Virus record (IMG/VR): IMGVR_UViG_3300036773_000046
Coordinates: 1-64,000 of that record
Strand: one strand, 5' to 3'
Source of the DNA: a virus
Lineage: Duplodnaviria > Caudoviricetes
Length of the DNA: 64,000 nt
The position numbers were made by a program, and so were the translations under genes. Below the pieces are notes generated by a model that saw nothing but the letters and a program-made list of their open reading frames with translations, had not been told where the DNA came from and did not search any database. Position 1 is the first letter of the stretch, and each line of letters starts with the position of its first letter. Below, piece after piece: positions 30,899-64,000 of this stretch.

Positions 30899-30907
30899 GG
30901 TCTGATC

Positions 30908-46518: not shown

Positions 46519-46519
46519 G

Positions 46520-47044: not shown

Positions 47045-47054
47045 AAGGGAAGAC

Positions 47055-48152: not shown

Positions 48153-48162
48153 GAAGTGGATC

Positions 48163-48575: not shown

Positions 48576-48612
48576 TACGTTGCGATAGCTAGGAAACGTT
48601 GAAGGATGATAG

Positions 48613-48828
48613 GTGCCACCACCATCCCCGCAGCTTCGGCAGGTGAGCGTGAGCTTAGGCACACGCGCGCTGCCCGACGTGAAGGCGGCGGTGGATCACG
48701 CGACACAGAACAAAGATCATGACCCGATCGTGTTCTTGATCTTAACCGACCAAGGACAGCAGCAGACCAGGTGGTATTGCGAGAAGTGTATGCAGATCAA
48801 CGGCCTACCGTACTTTGGGACCTCGTAA
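48613..48828 (+). CDS. Hypothetical protein with CxxC motifs
   Basis: 71 aa immediately upstream of the kinase. Confidence 0.45.
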   Translation: MPPPSPQLRQVSVSLGTRALPDVKAAVDHATQNKDHDPIVFLILTDQGQQQTRWYCEKCMQINGLPYFGTS

Positions 48829-48829
48829 C

Positions 48830-49765
48830 GTGTTGATAATTTTGGAAGGACCTGATGGGAGCGGCAAAAGTACCCTCGCTAAGCTGATATTCGATCACCT
48901 AAACGAGACGCTGCCGGGTGATCACGTCGAGCTACTGCACAAGGGTCCGCCGCACGTGCACCCACTTAAGGAGTACGAGGCGCCGATCTTCTGGATGCGC
49001 GACTACCGACCGGGAACCAGCGAGCACCTCATCTGCGACCGATGGCACCTGGGCGAGGTGATCTACCCGGCGGTGTTGGATCGCCCATCCGCGATGACGC
49101 CCGAGGTGTTGTGGCACATCGAGATGTTTCTGCGGTCGCGAGGCGCGCTGATCGTTCACGTGGATGAGCACACCGACACGCTGATGGAGCGGGTACGCAC
49201 GCGAGGCGACGATCTTATCAATCCCGATCAGCTGCAGGACATCCGTCGGCGGTACTACGACGTGCTGGCTGATTCGATGTTACGTACCACGATGAGTCGA
49301 CGACCCGAAGAGATCGTGAAGATCGCCCAAGAGCTAGACGCGATCTCGTCTCACCTGAATAACTTCGGCACGTACGTCGGACCACGGTACCCCGACGTCT
49401 TGCTGTTTGGCGAGGTACGCAACGTCCCTCAGCTGGTGCTGGATCGGCCAACGCCCGCCTTCATGCCCTACCCCGCGACGTCGGGTGCGTACCTGCTACG
49501 TTCGCTGCTCAACTGCCCAGAGAAGCGCGACAAGATCGGCGTTGCGAACGCATGCGACCGTGACGACCCGTTCGACTTGTGGTGGGAGTTGGGTCAGCCC
49601 TTCGTCGTGTCGCTAGGCGCGAAGGCGACGTTGACGCTGCGACGCAAGGAGATCTTCGTCTCACGGGTGGTGAATCACCCACAGTACGTGAGACGCTTCA
49701 AGTCAAGATTCGGCGCGCAGTACGCACGACAGATTCTCTACGGCGAGGAGCCGACGTGGAGTTAG
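48830..49765 (+). CDS. dNMP (thymidylate-like) kinase fused to a UDG-fold-like C-terminal domain
   Basis: IILEGPDGSGKST and ICDRWH.GE..Y, then LLFGEVRN, ANACD, VVSLG..A and HPQY..RF. Confidence 0.75.
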   Translation: MLIILEGPDGSGKSTLAKLIFDHLNETLPGDHVELLHKGPPHVHPLKEYEAPIFWMRDYRPGTSEHLICDRWHLGEVIYPAVLDRPSAMTPEVLWHIEMFLRSRGALIVHVDEHTDTLMERVRTRGDDLINPDQLQDIRRRYYDVLADSMLRTTMSRRPEEIVKIAQELDAISSHLNNFGTYVGPRYPDVLLFGEVRNVPQLVLDRPTPAFMPYPATSGAYLLRSLLNCPEKRDKIGVANACDRDDPFDLWWELGQPFVVSLGAKATLTLRRKEIFVSRVVNHPQYVRRFKSRFGAQYARQILYGEEPTWS

Positions 49766-50589
49766 TGATCAAGGACCTTCGCGAGGACTACGTCAAGATC
49801 TGTCGTGACGTGGTGACGTACGGCGAGATGGTCTACGGACGTGGCACGGCGACGAAGGAGTGGACGGGCGTCACGCTACTGTGTCCCGACCCGACCGTCC
49901 CGCTGCTGCCCGTCGGCGTCGGACGTCGCGTCAACCTGAAGCTCGCGGCGCTTGAGGCGCTGGGCATGATCGCCGGTGAGTGGCCGTGGGACTTGATCAC
50001 GCGGGTGGCGCCTCTTTACTCGTCTGTGCTGGTGTCGGGTGACGACCCAGGCGCCGCACAGTACGCCGCGTATGGACCGCGCATTTCGCGGCAACTACCC
50101 GTCGTGCTCGACATGCTGCGGGAAGACAACGCGACGCGGCAGGCGGTCTTGCAGATCTGGAAGCCGGAAGATCTCACGCACCAGGGCGACCGTCCTTGCA
50201 CGATCTCTCTGCAGTTCTTACGTCGCAACGCAAAGCTAGAGTGTCACACGTACATGCGATCTCAGGACGTGTGGCTTGGACTGGCGATGGACGTGTTCGT
50301 GTTCACGCAGCTACAGCTGACGATGGCGGCGGCGTTGGGCGTCTCACCCGGCAAGTACGTGCATCACGTCGGTAGCCTACACGCGTATCAACGCGACTTC
50401 GAACGCATCCACGAGATGGCTGAACACCCGATCTCAGCGGCGGTCGACGAGTTGCCGCAGGGCTTACGCGTCGTGAAGAACCCGCAGATCATGGCGAGCC
50501 TGATCTTAGCAGGCTCGGCGCAGTCGTCGGACAACGAGTGGTACCTACGCCAGATGGCACTGATCAGGAAGATCAAGACGAATGCTTGA
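49756..50589 (+). CDS. Thymidylate synthase-family enzyme, probable dCMP hydroxymethyl/methyltransferase
   Basis: YGPRI, TRQAVL.IW, catalytic PC (DRPCT), MRSQDVWLGLAMD with Asp at the dUMP-Asn position, and SLHAY. Confidence 0.8.
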   Translation: MELVIKDLREDYVKICRDVVTYGEMVYGRGTATKEWTGVTLLCPDPTVPLLPVGVGRRVNLKLAALEALGMIAGEWPWDLITRVAPLYSSVLVSGDDPGAAQYAAYGPRISRQLPVVLDMLREDNATRQAVLQIWKPEDLTHQGDRPCTISLQFLRRNAKLECHTYMRSQDVWLGLAMDVFVFTQLQLTMAAALGVSPGKYVHHVGSLHAYQRDFERIHEMAEHPISAAVDELPQGLRVVKNPQIMASLILAGSAQSSDNEWYLRQMALIRKIKTNA

Positions 50590-51013
50590 AACGAGAACAC
50601 GGCCCAGCGAGGACGAGGTGCTACTGCACGTCGCCTACGCCATCGCCGCGCGCGGTACCTGCCCGAACCTACAGGTCGGCGCGGTGATCGCCCGCGACGG
50701 TAGGATCTTGAGCACCGGGTACAACGGCGTGCCGTCTGGCTTCGAGCATTGCACGCACCCGAGGCGGCAGCCGGGCGACCCGATCGTGAAGTGTGGCGCC
50801 ATCCACGGCGAGGCTAACTCCATCGCGTGGGCGGCGCGCAACGGAGTGTCAACCGTTGGTGCGACGATGATCTGCACCGACACGCCGTGCTGGACGTGCG
50901 CTCAGATGATCGTGCAGGCGGGAATCGTGCGCTTTGTTGCGGATAGAGAGTACCGGCGAACCGAGGGTGTGGACCTACTGCGGCAGGCGAACGTGCAGGT
51001 GGCAATGCTGTGA
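50582..51013 (+). CDS. dCMP deaminase
   Basis: Motifs RGTC..LQVGAVI, TGYNG.P, HGEANSI and PCWTC. Confidence 0.92.
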   Translation: MLETRTRPSEDEVLLHVAYAIAARGTCPNLQVGAVIARDGRILSTGYNGVPSGFEHCTHPRRQPGDPIVKCGAIHGEANSIAWAARNGVSTVGATMICTDTPCWTCAQMIVQAGIVRFVADREYRRTEGVDLLRQANVQVAML

Positions 51014-51028
51014 CGTTGGTGTTGATTA

Positions 51029-52924
51029 GTGGGTGACATCATACCCCTGCGTCCCAATGAGAACACGATCGTTGGGCAGGGGTATCGACCCTTAGGTGAG
51101 GCGCGTGCGCACCTCGTCGAAACCACCGACGACGCGTTCGAGTTGCTACGGTGGCTCAGCACGAAGACGGAGATCGCCCTCGACACGGAGACCACCGGCA
51201 TCGACCGTCAGAAAGATCGTCCACGCATGGTCCAGATCGGCGACGAGATGGACGGCTGGGCGATCCCGTTCGAGCGCGCCGCGTTCATCGTCGATGACGT
51301 CGTACGCCGCTTTGAGGGCGAGTACGTGATGCACAACGCGACGTTCGACGCGCACATGCTCGAGTTTCGCGGCGCCGTCAAGCCCATACCCACCAACAAG
51401 ATTCACGACACGCGCATCATGGCGCACGTGCTGTCGTCCACCGGACCACTCGGCCTCAAGCCTCTCTCCCAGCGCTTTGTGGACGCGGGTGCCACCGCCG
51501 CGCAGGAGGCGCTGAACGACGGCATTGGCAAGCACGGCGGGTGGACGTGGGCAAACGTGCCAGTTGACTACGAACCCTACTGGGTGTATGCCGCGTTAGA
51601 CACCGTGTTGACCAAGCGATTGAAAAATCACTTGTGGCCGCAGGTGCAGACCATCGCGCCCAACTCGTACTCTCTCGAGATGCTCGTCATGTGGGTGTGC
51701 GCGAAGATGGAACGTAAGGGCGCGAAGATTGACCGCCAGTACACCCAGGAGTTCAGCGACAAGCTCGAGGTGTACGCGGGCCAGGTTGAGGACTGGGTGC
51801 GACAACACTACGGCGCCAGCGCGGGATCCGACGAGGCAATCGTTGCGATCTTAGAACGTGAGGGCGTGCCGCTGTGGAAGCGCACGCCGTCGGGCAAGCG
51901 GTACTCGCTCGACAAGGAAGTGATCGGCGAGATCGAGCACCCATTGGCGAAGGCGGTGCAGGGTCGCCGGCAAGCCGTGAAGATCATGTCCACCTACCTA
52001 CGGCACTACCTACTTGAGACCGACGCGAACGACCGTGTGCACCCGTCGATCAACACCGTCGGCGGCACCAGCAAGAGTCCCTTCGAGTCGGGCGGCGCGC
52101 GTGGCGTGCGCACGGGTCGTATGTCGATGGACTCGCCCAACCTGCAGAACGTACCCATCCGCACCAAGGAGGGTAAGAAGATCCGCAACTGCTTCATCGT
52201 GGACGACGAGGAGACGTGGATCAAGTGCGACTTCGATCAGATTGAGATGCGTCTGTTCGCGCACATCGCGGATGACAAGGCGCTCATCGACGCGTTCGTG
52301 CAGGCGCACATGGGCGGTGTCGACATGTTCACCCGCGCCTGCCGCGACATCTTTCAAGATCAAGCAATCTTAAAGAGCGACGACCGACGGCAGTACGTGA
52401 AGAACGGGTTCTACGCGATCTTATACGGCGCGGGTCTCGAGCAGTTCGCGAAGACGGCGGGCATCAGGCATCCCGACGGCGCTCCCGATCTTGGCTCGGC
52501 GAACGCGTTCCTCGTGCAGCTACACCGACGATATCCCGGCATCAAGCAGCTGCAGGCGATCACCGAGCAGGATGCCATGCAGCGACTGGCAAGTGAGGGT
52601 GAGGCGTACGTGGAGTCTCCGTTGACGCGTCGTCGATTCGTCGCCGACCGTGGTCGCGAGTACGCGCTCATGAACTACATGGTGCAGGGCGCCGCGGGTG
52701 AGATCTTGAAGATGAAGATTGTGCAGGCGGACATGGCCGGGCTGGGCGACTACATGCTCTTTCCGGTTCACGACGAGATCGACTTTGCGATCCCGACGAA
52801 CGACCTACCCGATGCGACGCAGACGATCAAAGAAGTAATGAACGACGACGAGTTGCTCTCCGTGCCCGTGACCTCGACGATGTCGCTGGGTGATCGCTGG
52901 GGCGACGTGAAGGATGAAGAATGA
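51029..52924 (+). CDS. polA: DNA polymerase family A with 3'-5' exonuclease
   Basis: Motifs ALDTETTG, GRMS..SPNLQN, DFDQIEMR, KNGFYAILYGAG and VHDEI. Confidence 0.95.
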   Translation: MGDIIPLRPNENTIVGQGYRPLGEARAHLVETTDDAFELLRWLSTKTEIALDTETTGIDRQKDRPRMVQIGDEMDGWAIPFERAAFIVDDVVRRFEGEYVMHNATFDAHMLEFRGAVKPIPTNKIHDTRIMAHVLSSTGPLGLKPLSQRFVDAGATAAQEALNDGIGKHGGWTWANVPVDYEPYWVYAALDTVLTKRLKNHLWPQVQTIAPNSYSLEMLVMWVCAKMERKGAKIDRQYTQEFSDKLEVYAGQVEDWVRQHYGASAGSDEAIVAILEREGVPLWKRTPSGKRYSLDKEVIGEIEHPLAKAVQGRRQAVKIMSTYLRHYLLETDANDRVHPSINTVGGTSKSPFESGGARGVRTGRMSMDSPNLQNVPIRTKEGKKIRNCFIVDDEETWIKCDFDQIEMRLFAHIADDKALIDAFVQAHMGGVDMFTRACRDIFQDQAILKSDDRRQYVKNGFYAILYGAGLEQFAKTAGIRHPDGAPDLGSANAFLVQLHRRYPGIKQLQAITEQDAMQRLASEGEAYVESPLTRRRFVADRGREYALMNYMVQGAAGEILKMKIVQADMAGLGDYMLFPVHDEIDFAIPTNDLPDATQTIKEVMNDDELLSVPVTSTMSLGDRWGDVKDEE

Positions 52925-53691
52925 CTGATCTTGAAGTGCAGCTGGTCGCAACCACGCAGTTCCACTTGCCGGTAGGCGTGCCGTGGAAGCCTGACATCGC
53001 GTCGGCAAGCTATCAATACAGCGACGATCCTGCCTACCTGATCGAGTTCGCAGGACGTGCGTGTTATCAGTCGTGGAACCGCCCCAACGTGAATACCGCA
53101 ACCGTCGCCGGGTACATCGCTCATCTCATTGAGGTGGGCCACCTGTCAGTGCTGGAGCACGCGTCGGCATCGTTCTACATTCGTGGGATCACGCGTTCAT
53201 TGTCACACGAGCTGGTGCGCCACCGACACTTTAGTTACTCACAGCTGTCGCAGCGGTACGTGGACAGCGGCGGCACCGAGTTCATCATGCCACCCGAGGC
53301 GGTCGGTGACGCGTTCCTCGAGGCGATCATCGCCGATCACCACGAGAAGTCGTTGGCGACGTACGATGACATCGTGAATCACCTCATGGAGAAGCTGAAA
53401 GACGAACCTGGAACGTCGGTGGAACGGCGTAAGCGTGCACGGCAGACGGCACGTGCAGTGTTGGGCAATGACGTCGAAACGCAGATCGTCATGACTGGCA
53501 ACTACCGCGCGTGGCGACACTTCATCCGCATGAGAGCAACGGCGGGTGCAGACACCGAGATCCGAAAGCTAGCCGTCAAGATCTTACTGCGCCTACAAGA
53601 GTTTGATCCCGCGGTGTTCGGCGACTTCACGTTAGACACGCATACTGACGGCACGCTGATCGCTTCAACCGAGGTGGGGCAAGAACAATGA
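52921..53691 (+). CDS. thyX: Flavin-dependent thymidylate synthase
   Basis: GHLSVLEH, the ThyX motif ELVRHRHFSYSQLSQRY, and MTGNYRAW.HF...R. Confidence 0.95.
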   Translation: MTDLEVQLVATTQFHLPVGVPWKPDIASASYQYSDDPAYLIEFAGRACYQSWNRPNVNTATVAGYIAHLIEVGHLSVLEHASASFYIRGITRSLSHELVRHRHFSYSQLSQRYVDSGGTEFIMPPEAVGDAFLEAIIADHHEKSLATYDDIVNHLMEKLKDEPGTSVERRKRARQTARAVLGNDVETQIVMTGNYRAWRHFIRMRATAGADTEIRKLAVKILLRLQEFDPAVFGDFTLDTHTDGTLIASTEVGQEQ

Positions 53692-53864
53692 GGAAGTTTC
53701 GCAAGGAGTACATGCTTAAGTTACCCGCGCACGAGCTACGAAAGCTTCACGCCCAGATGCAGTACGATCTCGAGTACCTCGAGCAAGAGCGCCGTAGGGC
53801 GCGTGAGAACCTCGAGCTGGTGCGTGACGCGTTGCGCGTGAAGGGAGTGATCATCGGTGGTTGA
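53688..53864 (+). CDS. Small coiled-coil protein
   Basis: Translated by hand; ATGA coupling to thyX. Confidence 0.55.
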   Translation: MRKFRKEYMLKLPAHELRKLHAQMQYDLEYLEQERRRARENLELVRDALRVKGVIIGG

Positions 53865-54117
53865 CGCCGAGAAACGTAGCACCACCGGTAACGAGATCGA
53901 CGCAGGCGGCGTGGATCATCCTGCGCACTACAACCAGCATCCATCTGGCGTCGAGTGCGTCGACATCGTGCGGCACCATGATTTCGATATCGGTAACGCG
54001 ATCAAGTACCTGTGGCGGCAAGGACTGAAGGACGGCGAGCCCAGCGTGCGCGATCTTCGTAAGGCGATCTGGTACATTGAGGATGAGATCAAGATGATCG
54101 AGAGTAAAGATGCCTAG
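53857..54117 (+). CDS. DUF3310 family protein
   Basis: Motifs VDHPAHY..HPSGVECVD, GNAIKYLWR and DLRKA.WY. Confidence 0.85.
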   Translation: MVDAEKRSTTGNEIDAGGVDHPAHYNQHPSGVECVDIVRHHDFDIGNAIKYLWRQGLKDGEPSVRDLRKAIWYIEDEIKMIESKDA

Positions 54118-54246
54118 GACGACGGTCGGCAAGATCGGCTTTCTCTGGGTTGCCGCGGTGATCAACGACTTCGATCAGCTGCGTGACATACGCATCGGCT
54201 TTACTGCCGAACACGCGTTACGCCGTACACTGAAGGTGCATGGACG

Positions 54247-54429
54247 ATGACGCCACTTGAGCAGGCTGAGACACTCGAGGCGCGCGCAGCGTTTCTCGGC
54301 GACGTACGCATCCCGATTGAGCAGCGATTGAACGTCGTCGAGATTGAACGCACCGTGCTCGCGTTACGTGGCGCAGCGGACACTCTTCGTTTAGTTCATC
54401 GGCACGATCTTGAGAGGTTGCAGCAGTGA
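54247..54429 (+). CDS. Hypothetical protein
   Basis: Coupled to ruvC. Confidence 0.5.
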   Translation: MTPLEQAETLEARAAFLGDVRIPIEQRLNVVEIERTVLALRGAADTLRLVHRHDLERLQQ

Positions 54430-54896
54430 CACGCATCGTTGTGGGCGTTGACCCAGGTGACAGCACCGGAGTGGCGATCTTCAAAGACGGCGAGTTCGTG
54501 TCGGCGCATCAGGGACCGCCGGGCGACATGATCACCCTCGTCGAGTTTATCGTGAAGAAGGTCGCGGGCAACGACAGCTGTTGCGTCGCCGTTGAACGGT
54601 TCGTGCAGGGCGGTCGCGTCGCGCACTCGCACCAGCCAGTCGCGCAGCAGGTGGTCGGCGCCGTCGTTTCGCTTTGCGAAAAGTACGGCATACCTACGAC
54701 GATGCAGGGACCGGCGGACGCACGTGCGGTCGCGTCGAACGACACGCTGCGTGCGATGGGTTTGTGGCAGACGAAGAATGACGTGGATCGGCAGGATGCG
54801 AACGACGCGAACTCGGCGGTGCGTCACGCGTTGCTGTACATGGCCGGACACTACGCCACGGACTTCATCAAGCTACGGCAGCGTGCGGGAACTTGA
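54426..54896 (+). CDS. ruvC: RuvC-like Holliday junction resolvase
   Basis: Motifs VGVDPGDSTG, VAVERF and DANSA.RH. Confidence 0.8.
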   Translation: MTRIVVGVDPGDSTGVAIFKDGEFVSAHQGPPGDMITLVEFIVKKVAGNDSCCVAVERFVQGGRVAHSHQPVAQQVVGAVVSLCEKYGIPTTMQGPADARAVASNDTLRAMGLWQTKNDVDRQDANDANSAVRHALLYMAGHYATDFIKLRQRAGT

Positions 54897-54923
54897 TACG
54901 TTGATCGTCCAACGAAGGGAATC

Positions 54924-56831
54924 ATGGTTCACGCAACGCTGAGTGCGGCGAAGGACGCCATCAAGCTCGATTTAGCTTGGAATGAAATCGAGTTGGCGAA
55001 GATGCTGCCCGGCTCAAGCTACTCAGGACGCACCAAAGAGTGGACCGTGCCGTTGACGTGGGCGGCGATGATTCAGCTACGCAACCAGTTCAGAGAGAGC
55101 TTCACCTACGGTCAAGATCTGATCGACTGGACGTGGGAGGTGCGCCAGCACCGCGTCGATCCCGCGCTTGAGCTGCGTAACGTCATCGAGTGGCCCGACG
55201 ACGAGCAGCAAGATCTCTACGAGTTTCAGCGTGCGGGCGTGAAGTGGATGCTCGTCGCGCAGAGTGGTCTCTTGGGTGACGAGCTGGGCGTCGGTAAGAC
55301 GCCACAGGCACTCGTGTTCTTACAGGTGACGCAGGCCCTACCCGCCGTGATCATCTGTCCTAACCGTGTAAAGTGGCACTGGGCGTCGCGGCTACCACGT
55401 TGGTGTCCGGGCGCGGTGCCCTACGTGCTCGACGGCAGCGCGGGTGCGCGACGTAAGATCTTGAAGGCGGCCGCCGAAGATCCGATGGCCGTCGTGATCG
55501 TCAACTTCGAGGGTGTGCGCGCGTTCAGCCGGTTGGCACCCTTTGGCAACATCAAGCTGAAGCGGTGCAAGGAGTGCGATCCCAGGTGGGGCGACGGCAT
55601 CAAGCCGTCGCAGTGTCACGTGCATCCCAAGGAGCTCAACGGCTTTGGCTTTGCCACGGTGATCATCGACGAGGCTCATCGTATTGGCGACCCAAAGACG
55701 TTGACGACGCGCGCCGCCTGGGCCATCACACACGATGAAAGCGTGCGTTACCGCTGGGCGTTGACCGGAACGCCCGATAACGTCAAGCGGCTGTGGTCGA
55801 TCATGCACGCCGTGCAGCCTAACGAGTACCCGACGCGGTCGAAGTGGATGGACCGCTACGCGCTGGTGGCGTGGAACGCGTACGGCGGGCAAGACGTCGT
55901 CGGCCTGCGACCCGACACTCGTGAAGAGCTGTACCGGATCTTGGACCCACGCTTTAGGCGCATGATCAAGTCCATTGTGCTGCCGCAACTGCCGCCCATT
56001 GTGCGCAAGGCTGAGTTCTCTGAGCTCACACCCGCGATGCGTAAGTCGTACGAGGAGTTGGAGCAACAGCTGTTCACGATGCTGCCCAACGGCCAGTCGT
56101 TCATCTCGCAGAACAAGCTCGTGTCACGCACCCGCCTCATGCAGTTCGCCGCGGGATCCGTCGAGGTGGATAAGGAAGACGAAGACGACGTCTCGACGTG
56201 GAAGGTCAAGATCCTTGAGCCGTCGCCGAAGCTGGACACGTTTCAAGAGATCATCGAAGACATGCGACCTGGGCGTCCGTTCGTCGTCGCGTGTGAGTAT
56301 CGTGACGTGGTGGACATGGCGGCGGAGCGGCTGTCGAAGCTCGGCATCCGACACGCGATGATCGTCGGCGGCGTGCACCCACGCGCCGCCGAGGAGGCAT
56401 GCGTGGCGCTACGGTCAGGCGCGGTGCAGGGATTGATCTTCACGCACAAGGCGGGCGGCACCGGCCTCGACATGTCGGGTGCCGACCTGATGATCATGTT
56501 GCAGCGGTCGTGGTCGTTCATCGAGAACGTGCAGACTGAAGGGCGTGCGCACCGGATCGGCAGCGAGGTGCATGAGTCGGTGGAGATCATCGACGTCGTG
56601 ACTCGTGGCACTCGTGAAGAGCGGCAGATCGAGGTGCTGTACCAAAAGCTTGAGCAGTTCGAAGAGATCGCCCGCGACCGCAAGCAGGTGCAGGAACAGA
56701 TCTTGAGGACTCCGTTCACCAGTGAGGAATTCGCACGATTGGTTGCTAGATTGGATCAACTGAACGCCGCGCAAGAGAAGCTCATGCGGAATGATGACCT
56801 AGAAATGTTACTCCAGCAGGAGGAGTTGTGA
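54924..56831 (+). CDS. SNF2/DEAD-box helicase
   Basis: Motifs LLGDE.GVGKT, IIDEAH, ALTGTP, GG.GLD and Q.EGRAHRIG. Confidence 0.93.
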   Translation: MVHATLSAAKDAIKLDLAWNEIELAKMLPGSSYSGRTKEWTVPLTWAAMIQLRNQFRESFTYGQDLIDWTWEVRQHRVDPALELRNVIEWPDDEQQDLYEFQRAGVKWMLVAQSGLLGDELGVGKTPQALVFLQVTQALPAVIICPNRVKWHWASRLPRWCPGAVPYVLDGSAGARRKILKAAAEDPMAVVIVNFEGVRAFSRLAPFGNIKLKRCKECDPRWGDGIKPSQCHVHPKELNGFGFATVIIDEAHRIGDPKTLTTRAAWAITHDESVRYRWALTGTPDNVKRLWSIMHAVQPNEYPTRSKWMDRYALVAWNAYGGQDVVGLRPDTREELYRILDPRFRRMIKSIVLPQLPPIVRKAEFSELTPAMRKSYEELEQQLFTMLPNGQSFISQNKLVSRTRLMQFAAGSVEVDKEDEDDVSTWKVKILEPSPKLDTFQEIIEDMRPGRPFVVACEYRDVVDMAAERLSKLGIRHAMIVGGVHPRAAEEACVALRSGAVQGLIFTHKAGGTGLDMSGADLMIMLQRSWSFIENVQTEGRAHRIGSEVHESVEIIDVVTRGTREERQIEVLYQKLEQFEEIARDRKQVQEQILRTPFTSEEFARLVARLDQLNAAQEKLMRNDDLEMLLQQEEL

Positions 56832-58372
56832 CACAGACGACGCTGACTGGCACGCAGGTGCGGCAGGCACGTGAGGCCGCAGGCTTGTCCCGTCGAGAGT
56901 TCGCCGAGCGTGCGGGCTTTTCCACGCAGACGCGGATCTTCAACATCGAGTCCAAGGACAGTTGGAAGCCGGGTGACCGTGAGAGGGTGCAGTCCGTGTT
57001 GGACGACCTCGCCACGAACCCGCCGAAAGAGACTCACGGCAGGAAGAAAGGTCGTACGCGTAAGGAGAGTGCCGACGAGCGACTTGATCGACTTGAGTCG
57101 GCGTTGCGCGCGAACGGCAAGCTCTACCGCGACATGGTTGAACCCGACGAGGACAAGGGTCCCACGCTAGTCAACCCGGAGGTCGACTTCGACCCTGATC
57201 TTGAAGGCCTGTTCACCCCCTCCGAAGAGCAGGCCGACGACGACGGCTGCGCGCCCGACGAGTGCGCGACCGAGGAGGACGTTGAGGAGCCCGAGGAAGA
57301 TCGCCTGGAGCACAGTGACCCGGCGCAAGATTGGGACGATCTTGACGACACCAAGGAAGAAGTCAACGCGTTGCCCACCGACGTCAAGTTGCTGACCAAC
57401 AGCGAGGTGGCGGTGTGGAATCGGTGTCGTCGTAAGTGGTGGCTCGCGTTCTACCGACGGCTGATCTTCGGGCAGCGTGACTACTTCGGCGCGCGAGAGA
57501 TCGGCAACCGTGTTCACCGCGCCCTAGAGGGTTGGTACGTACCCGAAGGGCAGGAGCGCGTAGACCCTCGCGACGCCCTAGAGCGCGCAATCGTTGACGA
57601 CTGGACGCAAATCTCAAGGCAGGTCCACGAGCATGGCGTTCAGGGCGACGAAGAGCAGGTGCTCGGTGAGCTGGCAACGAAGTTCAACGACGCGGTCAGC
57701 CTCGAACGCGCCATGATCGAGGGCTACGTCGAGTGGCTGCAAGAGACGGGCGAGGATGCGAACCTGAAGATCGAGCAGCCCGAGGCGATCATTCACACTC
57801 CGATCGAGGGTGAGGTGGCCGGCGAGCACGTGGAGTTCGTGGCACTTGCCAAGCTTGACGTACGCGGCACGCGCGTCACCGACGGCACGCGCCTCTTCGT
57901 GGACCACAAGACGGTGGGTAACTTCACTGAGCCTCGCAAGGTACTACACATGGACCCGCAGATGCTGCACTATCACCTCATCGAGTGGCTAACGATGGAG
58001 GGTGGGCAGCGTTGCGACGCCGCGCTCTACAACATGCTTCGAAAGGTGAAGCGCACGCAGAGCGCGAAGCCGCCGTTCTTCGAGCGCGTCGAGGTGCATC
58101 ACAACGCGTACGAGATCGAGAATTACAAGAAGCGGTTGATCGGCGCGGCACGCGACATTCAGCGTGCGACGCGCGAGCTGGACGAGGGTGCGGACCCGAT
58201 GAGCGTCGCGTACCCCAACCCAACCAAGGCGTGCAGCTGGGATTGTGACTTCTTCATGATCTGTCCGATGGTGGACGACGGGTCACGCGTTGAGGACGCG
58301 ATCACCACCCTCTACCATCAGGGCGACCCGCTTGCGCGCTACGCTAAAGATCAGGAAGTAGGAGGAATCTAG
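56828..58372 (+). CDS. XRE-type HTH fused to a PD-(D/E)XK Cas4/RecB-like exonuclease
   Basis: N-terminal VRQAREAAGLSRREFAERAG and an acidic linker, then CRRKWW, KLD...VDHKT and C-terminal CSWDCDF..IC. Confidence 0.85.
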   Translation: MTQTTLTGTQVRQAREAAGLSRREFAERAGFSTQTRIFNIESKDSWKPGDRERVQSVLDDLATNPPKETHGRKKGRTRKESADERLDRLESALRANGKLYRDMVEPDEDKGPTLVNPEVDFDPDLEGLFTPSEEQADDDGCAPDECATEEDVEEPEEDRLEHSDPAQDWDDLDDTKEEVNALPTDVKLLTNSEVAVWNRCRRKWWLAFYRRLIFGQRDYFGAREIGNRVHRALEGWYVPEGQERVDPRDALERAIVDDWTQISRQVHEHGVQGDEEQVLGELATKFNDAVSLERAMIEGYVEWLQETGEDANLKIEQPEAIIHTPIEGEVAGEHVEFVALAKLDVRGTRVTDGTRLFVDHKTVGNFTEPRKVLHMDPQMLHYHLIEWLTMEGGQRCDAALYNMLRKVKRTQSAKPPFFERVEVHHNAYEIENYKKRLIGAARDIQRATRELDEGADPMSVAYPNPTKACSWDCDFFMICPMVDDGSRVEDAITTLYHQGDPLARYAKDQEVGGI

Positions 58373-58663
58373 GTGGAGTTTGAAAGAGCAAGTACCACCG
58401 CAGTAGGCGCGTATAAGCAAAAGTGTGAAGCGTGTAGCGGTGAGTTGTATCAGCAGCCCATCGCGCGTGCAGTTATTAGCGAAACACACAAGCCTTGGAT
58501 CCACGCATCTCTTAAGTGTGCATCAATCATGGGTGAACGCTACAGCTCACAACTGTGGAGTGACGCAACACGTAAGAGTGAGTGTGAAGAGGCTGCGCGA
58601 AAGGGTGCATCCATGCGTTACGTTGGTGGAGGCCGCGGTAAAGACTGGGTACACACGCTATGA
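58373..58663 (+). CDS. Hypothetical protein (visibly lower GC)
   Basis: AGGAGG RBS; ATGA coupling to the next gene. Confidence 0.5.
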   Translation: MEFERASTTAVGAYKQKCEACSGELYQQPIARAVISETHKPWIHASLKCASIMGERYSSQLWSDATRKSECEEAARKGASMRYVGGGRGKDWVHTL

Positions 58664-60441
58664 CAGCTTCTACACAGCCTGCAACCCAGCAGGCTACACC
58701 CGTCACGCAGCAGGCGCCGCAGCCGATCCAGGTGATCACGCCGTTTGGCGTACAGCAGCGCATGTCGTGGCTGATCCACGGCCGGTCGAAGCGAGGCAAG
58801 TCCACGCTCGCGTCGTCGGCGCCCAAGCCCCTCCTTGTGCTCGATGCCGAGGGCTCGTGGCGATTCATTCCGCCGGGTGAGGGGAAGGTGATCAAGTACT
58901 GGGACCCACTACGTGAGACGCCACCGGTCTACGACGGAACCTGGGAAATCTGCGTCGTGCACGTGCAGGAGTGGAACACGGTCGACCTCGTGTACAAGTA
59001 CCTCACGCAGTGGCCGTTGCCGTTCGTGTCCGTGATCGTCGACTCGATCACCGAGATTCAGCGGCGGTGCTTTCTCCCGGACACCGAGGTGTTGACGCCT
59101 AGCGGCTGGGTAGCAATTACTGACGTACGTGAGGGTGACGCCATTGCTCAATACCACGCCGATGATGAGCGAATTACGTTTGCGGCGACCACTGATGTGC
59201 AGTCATTTGATTACTCTGGTGACGTCGTTCGTACGCAAACAAACTTTGCAGATCTTGCGGTAACGCCCGATCATCGGATGCTTGTTCGTAACACCAAGCA
59301 ACATGTTCCCTATGAACGCACAGCTTGTCAGTTGCTTGGTGGCACCTACTACCTACCGGTTGCGGGAAGATACCACGGTGGATCGGCTGACACCCCAACC
59401 GACGATGAGATTCGTTTGCTCGTCGCGTTGCAGGCTGACAGCTATCACGCCACCACCAACGTGTACGCGTTCAACCTTCGCCGTGACCGTAAAAAGACTC
59501 GTCTTGAACGTCTATGTCAAGCTACGGGCACACGGTACCGACGCATTGACCGAGGTGACGGGTGGACTCACTTTAGGGTCTGGCGAACTGCAGTGATCGA
59601 CAAGTGGTTGCCTGAGAAGACGTTCCAATGGATCATGCTAGACTGGTCAGAGCATGGACGCACCGTGTTTCTTGACGAGCTTGCGTCGTGGGATGGTTCA
59701 CGCGCCCCAAGATCGGTGCATTACGGAACGATCAACGACCAAAATGCAGACATTGTGTCGGCAGTTGCCGCATTGACGGGTCGTGGCTCAAGCGACATGA
59801 TTGGGCGCACACGCATCGGCACTCCGTATCATCGCATGACGGTCAGTGACTACACGTGGCGCCGTGTTGGACGAAGTGACTTCACGACTAGCGAGAAGTA
59901 TGTTGGACGTGTGCACTGCGTCACTGTACCGTCTGGATTTATAATTACACGACGTAACGGCAAGGTAACCATCGCTGGGAACTGCAAATCAAATCTCAAG
60001 GGCACCGACGCCATGAAGATCCAAGACTGGGGCGTGTTGCTCTCGGTCATGGACGCGACGATTCGCGGGTTCCGTGATCTCTGCCTGATGCCCCAGCTCA
60101 ACGTTCGGTGCGTGGTCTTCGTCGCGGAGACGAAGGACGGCCCACTGGGTCGTCTCATCCCCGCAATGCAGGGTCAGATCGCAGGTTCGCTACCCTACTG
60201 GGTAGACGTTTGCGGCTTCCTCTACGAGGACTACGAGCTCGACGAGAACCAGCAGGCGACACGCGAGGTTCGGCGCCTGTGGATCAGTCCTCATCAGATG
60301 TACGAGGCGGGAGAGCGAGTGCAGGGACGACTCGGCAAGGTACTCACCGTCGCTAAGCCACCCGACGGGCAGGTCGGCGTGGAGATCAACTACTGGATGC
60401 ATTTTGTATTTGGTATTCCCTGGAATCAACAAGCTTCTTAA
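58660..60441 (+). CDS. AAA_24/Sak4-like ATPase (recombinase) interrupted by an intein
   Basis: Walker A GRSKRGKST, LVLDAEG, VIVDSITE and, after the intein, P.MQGQ. Confidence 0.87.
   Translation: MTASTQPATQQATPVTQQAPQPIQVITPFGVQQRMSWLIHGRSKRGKSTLASSAPKPLLVLDAEGSWRFIPPGEGKVIKYWDPLRETPPVYDGTWEICVVHVQEWNTVDLVYKYLTQWPLPFVSVIVDSITEIQRRCFLPDTEVLTPSGWVAITDVREGDAIAQYHADDERITFAATTDVQSFDYSGDVVRTQTNFADLAVTPDHRMLVRNTKQHVPYERTACQLLGGTYYLPVAGRYHGGSADTPTDDEIRLLVALQADSYHATTNVYAFNLRRDRKKTRLERLCQATGTRYRRIDRGDGWTHFRVWRTAVIDKWLPEKTFQWIMLDWSEHGRTVFLDELASWDGSRAPRSVHYGTINDQNADIVSAVAALTGRGSSDMIGRTRIGTPYHRMTVSDYTWRRVGRSDFTTSEKYVGRVHCVTVPSGFIITRRNGKVTIAGNCKSNLKGTDAMKIQDWGVLLSVMDATIRGFRDLCLMPQLNVRCVVFVAETKDGPLGRLIPAMQGQIAGSLPYWVDVCGFLYEDYELDENQQATREVRRLWISPHQMYEAGERVQGRLGKVLTVAKPPDGQVGVEINYWMHFVFGIPWNQQAS
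59068..59982 (+). mobile_element. Intein (305 aa) with degenerate LAGLIDADG-like core
   Basis: Starts CFLPDTEVLT..GW, block B VTPDHRM, ends VHCVTV.SG...TRRNGKVTIAGN, and the +1 residue is Cys. Confidence 0.92.
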
Positions 60442-60458
60442 GAGAGGAAGCAAGCAAC

Positions 60459-61439
60459 ATGCCAGTGTACAACTTCGCCGACCTGCTGAAGGAAGCCAAG
60501 CAGGGAAGCGCGTGGCCACCCGGCGACTACGACTTCGAGATCGCGCAGGCGGACTCGGTGCTCGCGGGAACCGGATCGCCCATGATCAAGTCCAAGCTGC
60601 GGTGCATCGTCGGGCCGTATGCCAACAAGACCGTCGATAACAACTTCGTGCTGAAGGTCGACAGCTCGGGTGCGATGGCTCGGTTCTTCATGCACATGGC
60701 GATCCTGGGCGTCACCGAGCAGTTCCTCACCGAGCAGCTCAAGCAGCTCAACACGGACGATCCGAACTGCCTTGCGCCGATCGCCGCGCAGATTCGCGGC
60801 AAGCGTTGCCGTCTCAACCTGCAAGAGCGCACGTACAACGGCATGAAGCAGAACGACATCAAGGAGTTCAAGGCAATCGACGGTGGCCTCACGGGTGGAC
60901 CAGTCGGCTTCACCGGCGGGATGCCCGGGCCGGGACCCGGTCCGACGCTGCCCGCTGCGCCGCAGCAGTTCGCGCAGGGTGGCGTCGTTCCACCCGACGC
61001 GTCAGTGCCGCCCGCGTTCGTTCCGCCCGCGCCCGTGGCCAACGGGCAGGCGCAGCAGTTCGTACCGCCGCCGACGCCCGACGCGTCACAGCCACAGTAC
61101 GCGCCGCCCGTAGCTCCTCCGGCACCGGCTGCACCACCCACCGCACAGCCGCAGTACGCGCCGCCGCAGGCCACACAGCCGTCGCCACAACCCGCCCCGG
61201 CGCCGCCGCCACCACCCACGCCACCGCCGCCGCCCGCACCTCCAGTGCAAGAGCAGGCGCAGCAGCCTGATCTGGCGAACGTCCCGGCACCTCCCGGCTA
61301 CGAGGCAATGTGGAATCAGATTCCAGCGGACGCGCGCGCCTCGATCTTGCAGAGCGTCGCGGCGCAGCAGGTCGCGCAACCGCAGCAGGCACCACAGCAG
61401 CAGGCCGCCGTGCCACCTCCCCCACCAATGCCCGTGTAA
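60459..61439 (+). CDS. ssb: Single-stranded DNA-binding protein (DUF669-like) with long Pro/Gln-rich tail
   Basis: PPGDYDFEI...K.KLR...GPYA...V..NF OB-fold pattern, located next to the recombinase. Confidence 0.75.
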   Translation: MPVYNFADLLKEAKQGSAWPPGDYDFEIAQADSVLAGTGSPMIKSKLRCIVGPYANKTVDNNFVLKVDSSGAMARFFMHMAILGVTEQFLTEQLKQLNTDDPNCLAPIAAQIRGKRCRLNLQERTYNGMKQNDIKEFKAIDGGLTGGPVGFTGGMPGPGPGPTLPAAPQQFAQGGVVPPDASVPPAFVPPAPVANGQAQQFVPPPTPDASQPQYAPPVAPPAPAAPPTAQPQYAPPQATQPSPQPAPAPPPPPTPPPPPAPPVQEQAQQPDLANVPAPPGYEAMWNQIPADARASILQSVAAQQVAQPQQAPQQQAAVPPPPPMPV

Positions 61440-61528
61440 TGAACACGGCGGAGGTAATCACGCTGATCATCTGCGCCACAATCGCGGTGATCGCCTGGGC
61501 GGAAGCTTGGGTGAAACGTAAGAAGTGA
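61439..61528 (+). CDS. Small single-TM protein (29 aa)
   Basis: Translated by hand: MNTAEVITLIICATIAVIAWAEAWVKRKK; coupled on both sides. Confidence 0.55.
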   Translation: MNTAEVITLIICATIAVIAWAEAWVKRKK

Positions 61529-62898
61529 TAATCTCATATGGGAAGGTCGGGCGTGCAGTCGCATTGACAGAGGCAGGCTGGTCGACCGTTGGCGGTGACA
61601 TGGAACCTCCTCGCCTACTCCACGACCTAGCGTCGCGCAACCCGCAGCACACGTTCGCCATCATCTCTACGTGTCGTGATGACCCACAGGCATGTGGCTT
61701 CCCGCCCAACGTGGTGAACACGTGGACACCCGAACGTCTCGCGTGGTATTCGTCGCAGGTAAAGCCGTTTCAAGAGATCATGCGGCAGGTGTCCAAGACG
61801 GACATGGCGATGCTCGACGCGATCAGGGGGATCGAGGGTGTTATCGACACCATGCTGCTGCCTCTCGCAGAGAAGATGGAGGGTGCCGTCATCTGGTCGG
61901 GCCAACATGGGACGGCGAACAGCGTTCTCCCGTCGGTCACCGACCGCTCGGGTATACCTGGATTCACACGGCCATATGACTCCTTCACTTTTTACGGTGG
62001 TGGGATCTTCAGGCTCATCAACGCGTGGCGTGACCTAGATCCGAAGCGTAATGAGGAGGTGTGGCTGATCGCCGACGCACGTAACCACCTCAAGGCACGC
62101 GACCAGAAGTGGCCGTTGCGTCATCCCGTACTCGGGCAGTTCAACTTCACACGCGATCTTCATCACGAACGCTTCGGCGACAAGTCGAACCCGGCGGAGT
62201 TCTTCGGGTATGGCGACCGCGAGGAGACCGCGTCGTGGAAGACCGATCACACGTGGAAGTCACGCATCAGCTACGTGTACTCGGGTCTCGAGGCGTGCGG
62301 CGTCATGCCCGAGCACGTCGGCCACTGGTACACGGACGACAACTTCAATCAACGTGCGCACTTCGGTCTCTTCATCAACGAGGCGGGTGGACACGTCGGC
62401 CAGGGCGCGGATCAGAAGGCCAACGAACACAAGCTCGGTCGTGCGACGATCACTCGCGACTGGGTGCTGCCGATTCAACCGGCGTTCATCCACGGCAAAT
62501 GGACTAAGGCGTCAATGGAGGCGCTTAGCATCGACGTCACCTCGGTGCCGTTCGATCAGTACTTCCCAACGCTACGAACCGTCAAGTGCACGTTCACGAC
62601 GCCATCTTCCTACAGCGGCTGGGCAACCACGAAGGCGTGGGAGGCGTTCGCCGTTGGCACGGTGTGCTTTCGACACCCAGAGTACGACACCCAAGATCAC
62701 ATCTACGGACGACTACCCGACGAGGTGCGTGGGTGGCTCTCACCCAAGACTCCTGAAGATCTCAAGGCACGCGTCGAGTTCCTCAACGGCAGCGAGGTAA
62801 CGTGGAAGTGGCTGGTGCAGGCGCAGTATGATCTCTACCTAGACGTGGTGCTCAATCGCCCATGGCTGCAGAAGATCGAGGAAAGGCTGTTTGGATGA
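61525..62898 (+). CDS. GT-B glycosyltransferase resembling T4 DNA beta-glucosyltransferase
   Basis: C-terminal WATTKAWEAFA.GTV....EYDTQDHI...EDLKARVEFL...AQYDL parallels the T4 BGT C-terminus (recalled from memory). Confidence 0.65.
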   Translation: MIISYGKVGRAVALTEAGWSTVGGDMEPPRLLHDLASRNPQHTFAIISTCRDDPQACGFPPNVVNTWTPERLAWYSSQVKPFQEIMRQVSKTDMAMLDAIRGIEGVIDTMLLPLAEKMEGAVIWSGQHGTANSVLPSVTDRSGIPGFTRPYDSFTFYGGGIFRLINAWRDLDPKRNEEVWLIADARNHLKARDQKWPLRHPVLGQFNFTRDLHHERFGDKSNPAEFFGYGDREETASWKTDHTWKSRISYVYSGLEACGVMPEHVGHWYTDDNFNQRAHFGLFINEAGGHVGQGADQKANEHKLGRATITRDWVLPIQPAFIHGKWTKASMEALSIDVTSVPFDQYFPTLRTVKCTFTTPSSYSGWATTKAWEAFAVGTVCFRHPEYDTQDHIYGRLPDEVRGWLSPKTPEDLKARVEFLNGSEVTWKWLVQAQYDLYLDVVLNRPWLQKIEERLFG

Positions 62899-63007
62899 GT
62901 TGGCACACTTGGAAACGACTTGGAGCGTTCAATCCCGGCCCTTACACACTTGATCTTTGGTGGTGCGAGCGATGTGGAAAGATCAAGGGTAAGGGTTGGC
63001 GTCTATC

Positions 63008-63223
63008 ATGAGAATGTTTCAGCTGGTACGTAAGGAAGATGTGACCGGCGTGTCGGGCACAGGCGTCGTCGCCGAGGGGGTTGAGTTCTCGTCGGGCGTC
63101 GTCGTGCTGACGTGGCTCTCTGACTGGCCTACCAGCGTCGTGTTTCACGACCGTGGTATCGACTCGGTGAAGGCGGTTCATGGGCACAACGGCTCGACGG
63201 TCATTCACTGGATAAGTCCGTGA
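63008..63223 (+). CDS. Conserved phage hypothetical protein
   Basis: F.LVR.EDVTGVSGTG.VAEGVEF..G...HGHNG.T. Confidence 0.7.
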   Translation: MRMFQLVRKEDVTGVSGTGVVAEGVEFSSGVVVLTWLSDWPTSVVFHDRGIDSVKAVHGHNGSTVIHWISP

Positions 63224-64000
63224 AGTGGACCTTCGCCAGCGTACCCACGCGTGAGGTGGCACGCTGGTGGGATCAGCAGCCGTGTAACGTCAAGCACAGC
63301 GACGCGTCGCCGGGATCCGTCAAGTTTACGCGTGACGTGCGCGATAAGGTCCGGCGCGCCGAGCCACATCGCGTCGAGTTCATGCAGCTCGAACGCTGGA
63401 AGGGCAAGTGCGTCGTCGAGATCGGGTGCGGCATCGGCACCGAGGCGTTGGACTTTGCACGTGCGGGCGCACGCGTGTTCGCCTGCGACTTGTCCATTGA
63501 GTCGTTGCGAATTGCAACCACCCGCGCGTACTCTGAGCACTTGCAGGGGCAAGTGAAGTGGATCCACTGGAACGCCGAGCAGGAGCTGCATCACGAGCTG
63601 CGACGACGCAAGGCTGACCTGATCTACTCTTTCGGCGTGCTGCATCATACGCCCAACCCAGACACCGCGTTGCGTCACCTGCGTCAGATGGCTGGTCCCA
63701 AGACGGAACTTCGCATCATGCTTTACAATCGCTGGTCCACGAAGGGTCTACGCTTAGGACTCACCGACCGTAAGATCGCCAAAGGGTCGGAGGCGCGGGC
63801 CGACTCGCCGGTCACCTACGCATTCACGAAGAGACGCGCACGCACGCTGCTACGTAAGACTGGGTGGCAGGTGAAAAGCATTCACGTCGATCACATCTTC
63901 ATGTACGACGTAGACGCGTACCGTCGTGGTGAGTTCGTGCTCGCGTTTCCCTGGCGGCACCTACCCGCGTGGGTGCGAGATCAGATCAAGCGTTTGGTAG
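63220..64000 (+). CDS. Class I SAM-dependent methyltransferase (runs off the window edge)
   Basis: Translated by hand from GTG 63220: VVEIGCGIGTE, ACDLS and DLIYSFGVLHHTPNP. Open to the window end. Confidence 0.85.
   Translation, partial: MKWTFASVPTREVARWWDQQPCNVKHSDASPGSVKFTRDVRDKVRRAEPHRVEFMQLERWKGKCVVEIGCGIGTEALDFARAGARVFACDLSIESLRIATTRAYSEHLQGQVKWIHWNAEQELHHELRRRKADLIYSFGVLHHTPNPDTALRHLRQMAGPKTELRIMLYNRWSTKGLRLGLTDRKIAKGSEARADSPVTYAFTKRRARTLLRKTGWQVKSIHVDHIFMYDVDAYRRGEFVLAFPWRHLPAWVRDQIKRLV

Follow-up and report, generated by a model that had tools for sequence, protein, structure and literature searches.

The tailed phage recorded in IMG/VR as IMGVR_UViG_3300036773_000046 raises the question whether a phage from soil replaces the cytosine of its DNA with a glycosylated base, and if so, with which sugar. 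The window analysed here comprises positions 1 to 64,000 of this record (64,000 nucleotides) and forms the first 64 kb of a 79,066-bp contig. The predicted modification pathway is located in the right arm, and its genes beyond position 64000 were read from the same contig (in L001 numbering, the genome coordinate minus 60000). An initial annotation, made from the letters of the window, had proposed a T-even-style replacement of cytosine followed by glycosylation with an enzyme resembling the beta-glucosyltransferase (BGT) of phage T4. It listed six elements, all of which were found at the coordinates it gave. The core of this proposal is supported by residue signatures in a ThyA-like enzyme, by the fold match of a GT-B glycosyltransferase, by conserved synteny and by a fusion of this transferase to a dCMP deaminase domain, while the guess at the sugar and the option of 5-hydroxycytosine had to be corrected. 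Replacement of cytosine by 5-hydroxymethylcytosine (hmC), followed by glycosylation of the DNA by a new transferase family with a new, phage-made sugar donor, is the reading we favour, with moderate confidence. What is observed here, as described below, is the genes and the families and folds to which they are assigned, together with residue signatures, operon coupling and conservation.

Residue signature of the ThyA-like enzyme

The gene at 49756..50589 (plus strand) encodes a ThyA-superfamily enzyme (PF00303, E 1e-22), the predicted dCMP 5-hydroxymethylase and counterpart of T4 gp42; its translation includes DRPC and RSQDVWLGLAMD. The closest match in the PDB is the CMP hydroxymethylase MilA (E 2e-20), and comparison to gp42, taken from the T4 record, gives a BLASTP E-value of 3e-9. 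In alignments that also include E. faecalis ThyA, the cysteine of DRPC coincides with the catalytic cysteine of ThyA, MilA and gp42 (Cys146 in E. coli numbering, used hereafter). The GLAMD segment is aligned to GVPFN of ThyA, SD of MilA and RND of gp42, which places an aspartate at position 177 (N177D); a ThyA-family enzyme with the catalytic cysteine but Asp in place of Asn, as described initially, is thus borne out by all three comparisons. A second aspartate, Asp143 (L143D), is located three residues before the cysteine, both in this enzyme and in 36 of 36 alignable homologs, while Asp169 is kept as part of an RSQD motif. The full signature of Asp143, Cys146, Asp169 and Asp177 is identical in the 37 readable homologs of the clade (37/37), including those of DSL-LC01, a metagenome-assembled phage genome, and of Gordonia phage Phendrix.

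In the ThyA superfamily, N177D sets the specificity for cytosine (Lee et al., NAR 2026, PMC13326640). An acidic residue at position 143 (L143D/E) accompanies non-methyl products, with water access and hydroxymethyl rather than methyl as the outcome, and D169N marks the newly found 5-hydroxy-dCMP synthases, such as RB69 gp48 and DLP3 gp80 (PMC13326640). The ThyA-like enzyme lacks the latter change. The signature favours 5-hydroxymethyl-dCMP as the product, and 5-hydroxy-dCMP is disfavoured because D169N is absent from all 37 homologs. Of the bases considered initially, hydroxymethylcytosine is therefore favoured over hydroxycytosine, given the kept Asp169.

A plainer explanation is that these are ordinary nucleotide genes accompanied by auxiliary sugar genes, that the ThyA-like enzyme is a divergent thymidylate synthase and that the DNA has canonical bases but for C5 methylation by the cytosine methyltransferase of the phage. 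Public annotations of relatives do read "thymidylate synthase" and "thymidylate kinase", and the contig was assembled from ordinary short-read soil metagenomes; however, short reads sequence T4-type modified DNA as well, so the assembly is uninformative in this respect. With N177D and L143D invariant across the clade, a separate ThyX present in the same genome and a cytidylate hydroxymethylase as the best solved relative, this explanation is considered very improbable.

Structure and family of the glycosyltransferase

The predicted DNA hmC glycosyltransferase, a GT-B enzyme of 457 amino acids, is encoded at 61525..62898 (plus strand). It has no match in Pfam (E <= 0.01), PHROG or NCBIfam and represents an unnamed family, which comprises 550 word-indexed matches at E <= 0.001 when clustered at 90% identity and 240 matches at the same E-value threshold among 50%-identity representatives. 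The GTG start at 61525 is right: it was accepted because the first 25 residues match the amino-terminus of the family. The public gene call (432 amino acids) omits these residues (61525-61599), which contain the first strand and the glycine-rich loop (VIISYGKVGR...) conserved in the family.

An AlphaFold model built on 36 homologs (pLDDT 90) has the two Rossmann domains of the GT-B fold. Both structure searches place T4 BGT first, Foldseek with an E-value of 3e-7 and VIA-align with Z 20.6 (295 aligned residues, rmsd 3.8). BGT entries make up the top four structural matches (Z 20.1-20.6, 287-295 aligned residues, rmsd 3.6-4.0), the next family is BshA at Z 18.2, a lead of about 2 Z units over generic GT4 enzymes, and T4 AGT is found at Z 15.6. 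A match to a DNA glycosyltransferase, set initially as a test of the proposal, is thus present at the level of the fold, with T4 BGT on top, and not by Pfam. The resemblance of the carboxy-terminus to T4 BGT, noticed from the translation, is real but weak: hhalign aligns 68 carboxy-terminal columns of the family profile to T4 BGT with 37% probability.

In two metagenomic proteins, P0334 (747 amino acids) and P0435 (455 amino acids), the GT-B domain is fused to a carboxy-terminal dCMP/cytidine deaminase domain, and in the 146-kb contig L076 a gene of the GT-B family and a deaminase gene are adjacent. Fusions of GT-B to a C5 cytosine methyltransferase (C5-MTase) were not found among the 150 best representatives.

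Conserved gene order and the probable acceptor of the sugar

Gene order was compared in 77 loci, 72 from IMG/VR that carry the GT-B family, collected by a pattern scan, and five from other assemblies, with the window proteins as tblastn queries. The conserved order starts with the kinase, the ThyA-like enzyme, the deaminase and a family A DNA polymerase (PolA) and resumes further downstream with an SNF2 helicase, a PD-(D/E)XK nuclease, a RecA-like protein, an SSB-like protein and the GT-B enzyme, which is followed by a GT75 protein, a short-chain dehydrogenase/reductase (SDR), an NTP pyrophosphatase and the C5-MTase. Since this order recurs in the 72 IMG/VR loci and in further contigs, the arrangement is not due to chance. 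The replication arm is always the site of the GT-B gene, which comes after the SSB-like gene and before the genes for the NTP pyrophosphatase and the C5-MTase and never lies with structural genes. At every locus with a long enough upstream flank it co-occurs with the Asp177 ThyA-like gene, except in L076, whose distant GT-B (29% identity) has no ThyA-like gene in the 10 kb around it.

The dehydrogenase and the PF18723 gene of our phage are absent from all 77 loci and its methyltransferase gene is present only in the closest relative, L005; by this comparison the dehydrogenase, the methyltransferase and the coupled PF18723 gene are lineage-specific additions. The closest PF18723 homologs are encoded by sister phages with the same backbone and a member of the same GT-B family (hmmsearch E 1e-83 to 5e-90). 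In the sister phages L083 (4707-9675) and L084 (3228-8408), a donor cassette encodes an HAD phosphatase, a GatZ/KbaZ-like protein, a cupin resembling mannose-phosphate isomerase and an NTP_transf_3 protein of about 500 amino acids, followed by dUTPase_2, PF18723 and C5-MTase genes. This cassette recalls the arabinose route of phages RB69 and DLP3 and hints at a further kind of sugar on the base. DSL-LC01 again has the kinase, the Asp177 ThyA-like enzyme, the deaminase and PolA, and further on RecA, a different glycosyltransferase and a UDP-galactopyranose mutase. A transferase that stays constant while the donor supply is swappable, together with a physical fusion to a cytidylate enzyme, argues for transfer of the sugar onto modified cytosine, and not onto proteins or the envelope.

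Conversely, hmC, or another 5-substituted cytosine, might be made and incorporated while the GT-B enzyme and its cassette glycosylate something other than DNA, either virion proteins or the host envelope. Virion-protein glycosylation has reportedly been seen in some mycobacteriophages, and our phage clearly invests in late-operon glycosylation genes unlinked to DNA. Moreover, the GT-B enzyme does not match the BGT Pfam family, and the generic GT4 enzymes scoring just about 2 Z units lower act on small molecules and lipids. We consider a non-DNA acceptor unlikely: the GT-B gene keeps to the replication/recombination arm, away from structural genes, two cluster representatives have it joined to a dCMP deaminase domain, it accompanies the Asp177 ThyA-like gene wherever the flank suffices, save in L076, and T4 BGT is its top structural match.

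Putative sugar-donor genes

The GT-B gene is followed by a class I SAM-dependent methyltransferase (63220..64044, plus strand), two genes on, as the initial annotation had it; the gene ends 44 bases past the end of the window. It matches Methyltransf_11/12/25 (E 1e-14) and PHROG 22502 (E 1e-39), while its nearest solved structures, UbiG and CmoM, are both weak matches, and it is a candidate for a sugar O-methyl- or methyl-ester-forming enzyme. Between it and GT-B is a small open reading frame (ORF) of 75 amino acids from the ORF list (62996..63223, plus strand), with no family match. The 326-amino-acid gene upstream of GT-B (60459-61439) was considered as a sugar enzyme and rejected, given its weak PHROG match to SSB and the SSB/DUF669 found in its position in relatives.

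Past the window end, three sugar-nucleotide genes follow. The first (64041-65030) encodes a GT75 protein, a putative NDP-sugar pyranose-furanose mutase resembling MtdL (7xpr/7yua, E 1e-15), which adjoins the GT-B gene in 49 loci. In a phmmer alignment to 7yua/7xpr it keeps the DDD metal motif, Arg159, Asp195, Ser228/Gln229, Arg257 and Asp260; the roles of the MtdL residues, including the autoglycosylated Arg159, have been described (PMC9937993). The second gene (65027-66211) encodes an NDP-sugar 6-dehydrogenase (PF00984/PF03721; TIGR03026, E 7e-47). The third (66208-67188) encodes a homolog of GDP-mannose 3,5-epimerase (GME), with a match to the Arabidopsis enzyme (2c59, E 2.4e-79) that spans residues 17-339, the next SDR family being found at E 6e-30. 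The methyltransferase gene and the four that follow it, up to the PF18723 gene, are coupled by successive overlaps of 4 nucleotides. Inspection of the genes past 64000 thus showed that the operon runs on with sugar-nucleotide, PF18723, pyrophosphatase and C5-MTase genes.

GDP-mannose is a standard metabolite of actinobacteria, so the epimerase and the mutase would form a short route to GDP-L-galactofuranose. The sugar is probably derived from L-galactose and in the furanose form, and in this phage it is possibly oxidised or methylated, as a carboxylate and/or a methyl group would come from the dehydrogenase and the methyltransferase. A methylated or 6-deoxy sugar made via an RmlB homolog had been proposed initially; the methyltransferase is indeed in the operon, while the link to RmlB is lost, the donor genes being the epimerase, the GT75 mutase and the dehydrogenase.

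Kinase, deaminase, polymerase and ThyX

The gene preceding the ThyA-like gene (48815..49765, plus strand) encodes a two-domain kinase, a candidate hm-dCMP kinase and counterpart of T4 gp1. Its amino-terminal P-loop domain is of the YorR/thymidylate-kinase type, with weak thymidylate-kinase matches in Pfam and PHROG that are limited to the amino-terminus; in the model (pLDDT 91), this domain matches 2axp with Z 16.2. The carboxy-terminal domain (residues ~180-312) has the fold of the uracil-DNA glycosylase (UDG) superfamily (UdgX, 6ail, Z 9.7 with 117 aligned residues; 1l9g, Z 9.6; 2d3y, Z 9.5). The structure search with this domain returned only members of that superfamily (UdgX, family 4 and family 5 UDGs), and the assignment is from the fold search only, as no PDB or Pfam match was found at the sequence level. 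Its motifs read GEVRN and HPQ, at sites where we take GE(A/G)PG and HPS to be expected. A relationship between the kinase carboxy-terminus and PF18723 was ruled out (hhalign probability 0.3%). The fusion of kinase and UDG fold is kept across the clade and in DSL-LC01, and 24 loci, as well as DSL-LC01, have the kinase gene next to that of the ThyA-like enzyme. The kinase stop codon overlaps the start of the ThyA-like gene, and from the kinase to ThyX the starts and stops of successive genes overlap or abut. Of the dNMP kinase described initially as overlapping the ThyA-like gene, the overlap is correct, but the protein is not a plain dNMP kinase, its second domain having the UDG-superfamily fold.

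A dCMP deaminase (50582..51013, plus strand; PF00383, E 6e-21), the counterpart of T4 Cd, overlaps the stop of the ThyA-like gene with its start and is directly 3' of the ThyA-like gene in relatives too. Next is PolA, a family A DNA polymerase with a 3'-5' exonuclease domain (51029..52924, plus strand; PF00476, E 3e-61, and PF01612, E 2e-16); Pfam thus confirms both the deaminase and the polymerase named in the initial annotation. Its claim of a separate intact ThyX also holds: the flavin-dependent thymidylate synthase, counterpart of T4 td, is encoded at 52921..53691 (plus strand; PF02511, E 7.5e-52). ThyX was found in just three related loci and is therefore not a core part of the module.

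The PF18723 protein, the pyrophosphatase and the C5-MTase

The epimerase gene is followed by that of a PF18723 protein (67185-68063; 81.6 bits versus a cutoff of 25) of the aGPT-Pplase clade 1, or M6 gp55-like, type. The Pfam name of PF18723 is helical domain of 5-hmdU DNA kinase, but the phage protein contains no Walker A motif or P-loop in its sequence; it is homologous to the stand-alone protein of the M6 gp55 type, which is itself adjacent to a real kinase. M6 gp55 is dispensable for M6 chemistry in vitro, and clade 1 is without a demonstrated activity (PMC5889632, PMC8989533). Residues Cys270 and Glu271 of the phage protein are invariant across 57 homologs and recall the essential Cys/Glu pair of clade 2 aGPT-Pplases (PMC5889632, PMC8989533). 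By sequence, the protein is an enzyme of the thymidine-hypermodification superfamily recruited into a cytosine/sugar operon.

This relationship bears on a different outcome, in which no glycosylated cytosine is made: the ThyA-like enzyme could yield 5-methyl-dCMP or another C5 product, or hm-dCMP could be deaminated to hm-dUMP by the adjacent deaminase, with a hydroxymethyluracil-derived, thymidine-type hypermodification via PF18723. Thymidine-hypermodifying phages are the only known source of PF18723 proteins (PMC5889632, PMC8989533), the deaminase gene overlaps the stop of the ThyA-like gene, and entry titles report crystals of T4 AGT, another match of the GT-B model, with HMU-containing DNA. 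A methyl product is countered by Asp143, which marks hydroxymethylases rather than methylases. As for the thymidine-type route, dUMP hydroxymethylases keep Asn177 where 37 of 37 homologs have Asp, the phage carries ThyX and so wants dTMP, and most of the clade lacks PF18723, whereas the ThyA-like enzyme and GT-B are constant. A Pfam scan of all sizeable ORFs of the genome revealed no P-loop 5-hmdU DNA kinase, clade 2 aGPT-Pplase (aGPT-Pplase2) or TET/JBP domain, which argues against a thymidine hypermodification system. The classic 5-hmdU DNA kinase system was rejected in view of a PF18723 protein that lacks a P-loop and is of M6 gp55 type, together with the missing clade 2 transferase; a TET/JBP route, of a C5-MTase with a dioxygenase, was rejected as no such domain is present in the scanned ORFs. 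Taken as a whole, an outcome without glycosylated cytosine is judged highly unlikely.

The next gene (68070-68528) encodes a MazG-like NTP pyrophosphatase (PRA-PH, E 2e-11), the putative counterpart of T4 gp56. Its closest solved protein is DR2231 (E 2e-7), matched by the carboxy-terminal half only (residues 61-141 of 152). Within the all-alpha NTP pyrophosphatase superfamily, the phage protein matches PRA-PH, those of relatives dUTPase_2 and T4 gp56 both.

The C5 cytosine DNA methyltransferase-family enzyme (68531-69766; PF00145, 64.8 bits versus a cutoff of 22) contains the motifs FAGGF, NPPCSGFS, ESV, RPRYF and T.RE.AR.MGFPD (motifs I, IV, VI and VIII-X), which are kept in 60 orthologs; motif IV has PCS in place of the usual PCQ. 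The gene is present in 61 of the 77 loci, always after the NTP pyrophosphatase. No other gene of the module is as well conserved (39-65% identity, versus 28-64% for GT-B), and it reaches up to 65% where GT-B is at 29%. By linkage, the module also includes the PF18723 enzyme, the kinase's UDG-like domain and the C5-MTase, which have no assigned step.

Proposed pathway

The chemical steps, the DNA acceptor, the donor and the final base are predicted from sequence and fold. The MazG-like pyrophosphatase and the dCMP deaminase would shape the pyrimidine pool, the ThyA homolog would convert dCMP to 5-hydroxymethyl-dCMP, and the adjacent kinase would phosphorylate the latter, after which the host NDP kinase and the phage PolA would put hmC into DNA, with ThyX keeping dTMP canonical. 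After replication, the BGT-like GT-B enzyme would transfer a sugar to the hydroxymethyl group. The donor would be made from host GDP-mannose, converted to GDP-L-galactose by the epimerase and to the furanose form by the GT75 mutase; in this phage, oxidation and/or methylation of the sugar is the probable role of the extra dehydrogenase and the SAM methyltransferase.

Several points weigh against this pathway. All evidence for it comes from the sequence of a metagenome assembly. The GT-B enzyme does not match the Pfam family of T4 BGT (which we take to be PF09198), its profile similarity to BGT is marginal, and the acceptor does not follow from having the GT-B fold in common. In the GT75 protein, MtdL Asp87 is replaced by Ile and the manganese ligand His287 by Gln; as plant mutases differ at position 87 too (PMC9937993), the GT75 protein may nonetheless be active. 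The nearest solved structures of the dehydrogenase are UDP-glucose dehydrogenases, more than GDP-mannose dehydrogenase, which makes the order of the sugar steps and the nucleotide carrier uncertain. The substrate of the pyrophosphatase may be either dCTP or dUTP. The C5-MTase is conserved and apparently active, yet would be without a substrate under full replacement of cytosine; its conservation therefore points to partial replacement, the pyrophosphatase perhaps being a dUTPase, or to a different chemistry. Lastly, the late operon contains another glycosylation cluster, so the sugar genes of this phage need not all serve DNA.

The modification might also go beyond glycosyl-hmC, either through a furanose L-hexuronic acid and/or methylated sugar never seen in DNA or through a base-level group transfer by PF18723 on hmC; we rate this as unlikely. 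Partners of the PF18723 enzyme in that case may be the kinase::UDG-fold protein and the C5-MTase-like enzyme, whose conservation is unusually high. Group transfer on hmC, if true, would be the first cytosine counterpart of thymidine hypermodification chemistry.

If the glycosyl-hmC pathway is true, T-even-type camouflage of cytosine extends past T4-like phages of Gram-negative hosts to an uncultured clade of soil phages, in which it would be widespread (over 70 contigs in this comparison and 550 word-indexed GT-B homologs). The principle of hiding DNA from host nucleases is known; its sugar version would be new, with a swappable sugar cassette feeding one dedicated family of DNA glycosyltransferases, and natural DNA chemistry would gain sugars of the L-galactofuranose type, here possibly uronic or methylated. 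The pathway would also provide new enzymes for the labelling of hmC, new predicted targets of modification-dependent restriction systems and testable roles for the PF18723 clade 1 enzyme, the kinase::UDG fusion and the C5-MTase in an hmC genome.

Genome, host and late-operon glycosylation genes

The DNA of the window is near-identical to contigs of two soil metagenome runs from 2020 (99% and 84% of sampled words), one of which may be where it originates, and smaller shares of sampled words from the phage were found in two further soil runs. The left arm, on the minus strand, contains terminase, portal-type and tail genes, while the right arm, on the plus strand from about 44.9 kb, contains lysis, replication and putative modification genes. 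A promoter and terminator scan of 44500-64000 gave nothing above shuffled expectation. DNA and protein searches of a cultured-phage collection (50,697 records) revealed no near relative at the DNA level and no phage with the GT-B enzyme, and in the literature no paper was found on this phage clade, nor on hmC in actinophages. The host is probably an actinobacterium, a high-GC Gram-positive, as suggested by a G+C content of 60%, an Rv2525c-like/LysM lysin, and the WhiB genes and actinophage-type best hits of relatives. The initial name of actinophage thus fits by inference, whereas the DNA itself comes from soil metagenomes.

The second glycosylation cluster is located in the late operon around the terminase gene (24552-31954, minus strand; terminase at 27460-28836). 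It contains GT-A genes, namely a GT2 gene at 25873-26589 and a neighbouring ORF with a weak GT2 match, and a homolog of the RmlB-like dTDP-glucose 4,6-dehydratase (30908-31954, minus strand; TIGR01181, E 9e-69, below the cutoff). The RmlB homolog noted initially therefore exists, but it belongs to this separate cluster, about 30 kb away in the late operon. For glycosylation of the virion or the envelope, this cluster is the better candidate.

Two further genes of the right arm deviate from their relatives. The RecA-like AAA_24 gene (58660-60441, plus strand) encodes 593 amino acids, versus about 260-280 in relatives, and an intein appears to interrupt this recombinase, since it has Hint/intein-splicing matches (PF13403, PF14890). 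The PD-(D/E)XK nuclease (56828-58372, plus strand) has an amino-terminal HTH_3 domain (E 8e-5) that is apparently missing in several relatives.

Comparison with known systems

The predicted pathway is most readily compared with that of T4. Both ThyA-type enzymes have the same four-residue signature, and both phages encode a nucleotide kinase, a dCMP deaminase (Cd in T4), a pyrophosphatase of the gp56 superfamily and a thymidylate synthase of their own (Td versus ThyX). The GT-B gene is near a RecA-like gene, as b-gt is beside uvsX in T4, and the C5-MTase gene is beside the pyrophosphatase gene, as dam is beside gene 56. However, the phage GT-B enzyme belongs to a separate sequence family (T4 BGT is in CAZy family GT63), and the donor is probably a phage-made furanose of the GDP-L-galactose type, possibly oxidised or methylated, instead of UDP-glucose. 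The kinase is of the YorR/Tmk type and fused to a UDG fold, not of the gp1 type; the phage has ThyX and a family A polymerase; its methyltransferase is of the C5-cytosine type, puzzling in an hmC genome; and its host is probably a high-GC Gram-positive.

Phages RB69, DLP3 and RL38J1 (PMC13326640) share with our phage a ThyA-type enzyme with N177D and L143D/E beside a thymidylate-kinase-like kinase whose best structural match is YorR, as well as GT-B transferases and an unusual phage-encoded furanose donor, made with a pyranose-furanose mutase in Rhizobium phage RL38J1. Their enzymes carry D169N and make glycosylated 5-hydroxycytosine, while our clade keeps Asp169, which predicts hydroxymethylcytosine. 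The mutase of RL38J1 is a UDP-galactopyranose mutase and that of our phage a metal-dependent GT75 protein; their sugars come from ribulose-5-phosphate or UDP-galactose, whereas the sugar route predicted here starts from GDP-mannose.

Coupling of a GT75 mutase to a GDP-mannose 3,5-epimerase homolog is also found in the A201A and hygromycin A pathways (MtdL and Hyg20; PMC9937993). MtdL is a pyranose-furanose mutase for GDP-L-galactose as well as GDP-L-fucose, supplying GDP-L-galactofuranose and GDP-L-fucofuranose (PMC9937993). Our phage differs from these pathways in its replication operon context, its extra dehydrogenase and methyltransferase and its predicted DNA acceptor, and its GT75 protein is without Asp87 and His287 of MtdL.

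With the thymidine-hypermodifying phages M6, ViI, PhiW-14 and SP10 (PMC5889632, PMC8989533), our phage has in common the PF18723 clade 1 protein with an invariant Cys-Glu pair. In contrast to the M6-type systems, neither a P-loop DNA-base kinase nor a clade 2 transferase was detected in our phage, the hydroxymethylase is of the cytosine type (Asp177 in place of Asn177), and the PF18723 gene is translationally coupled to sugar-nucleotide genes.

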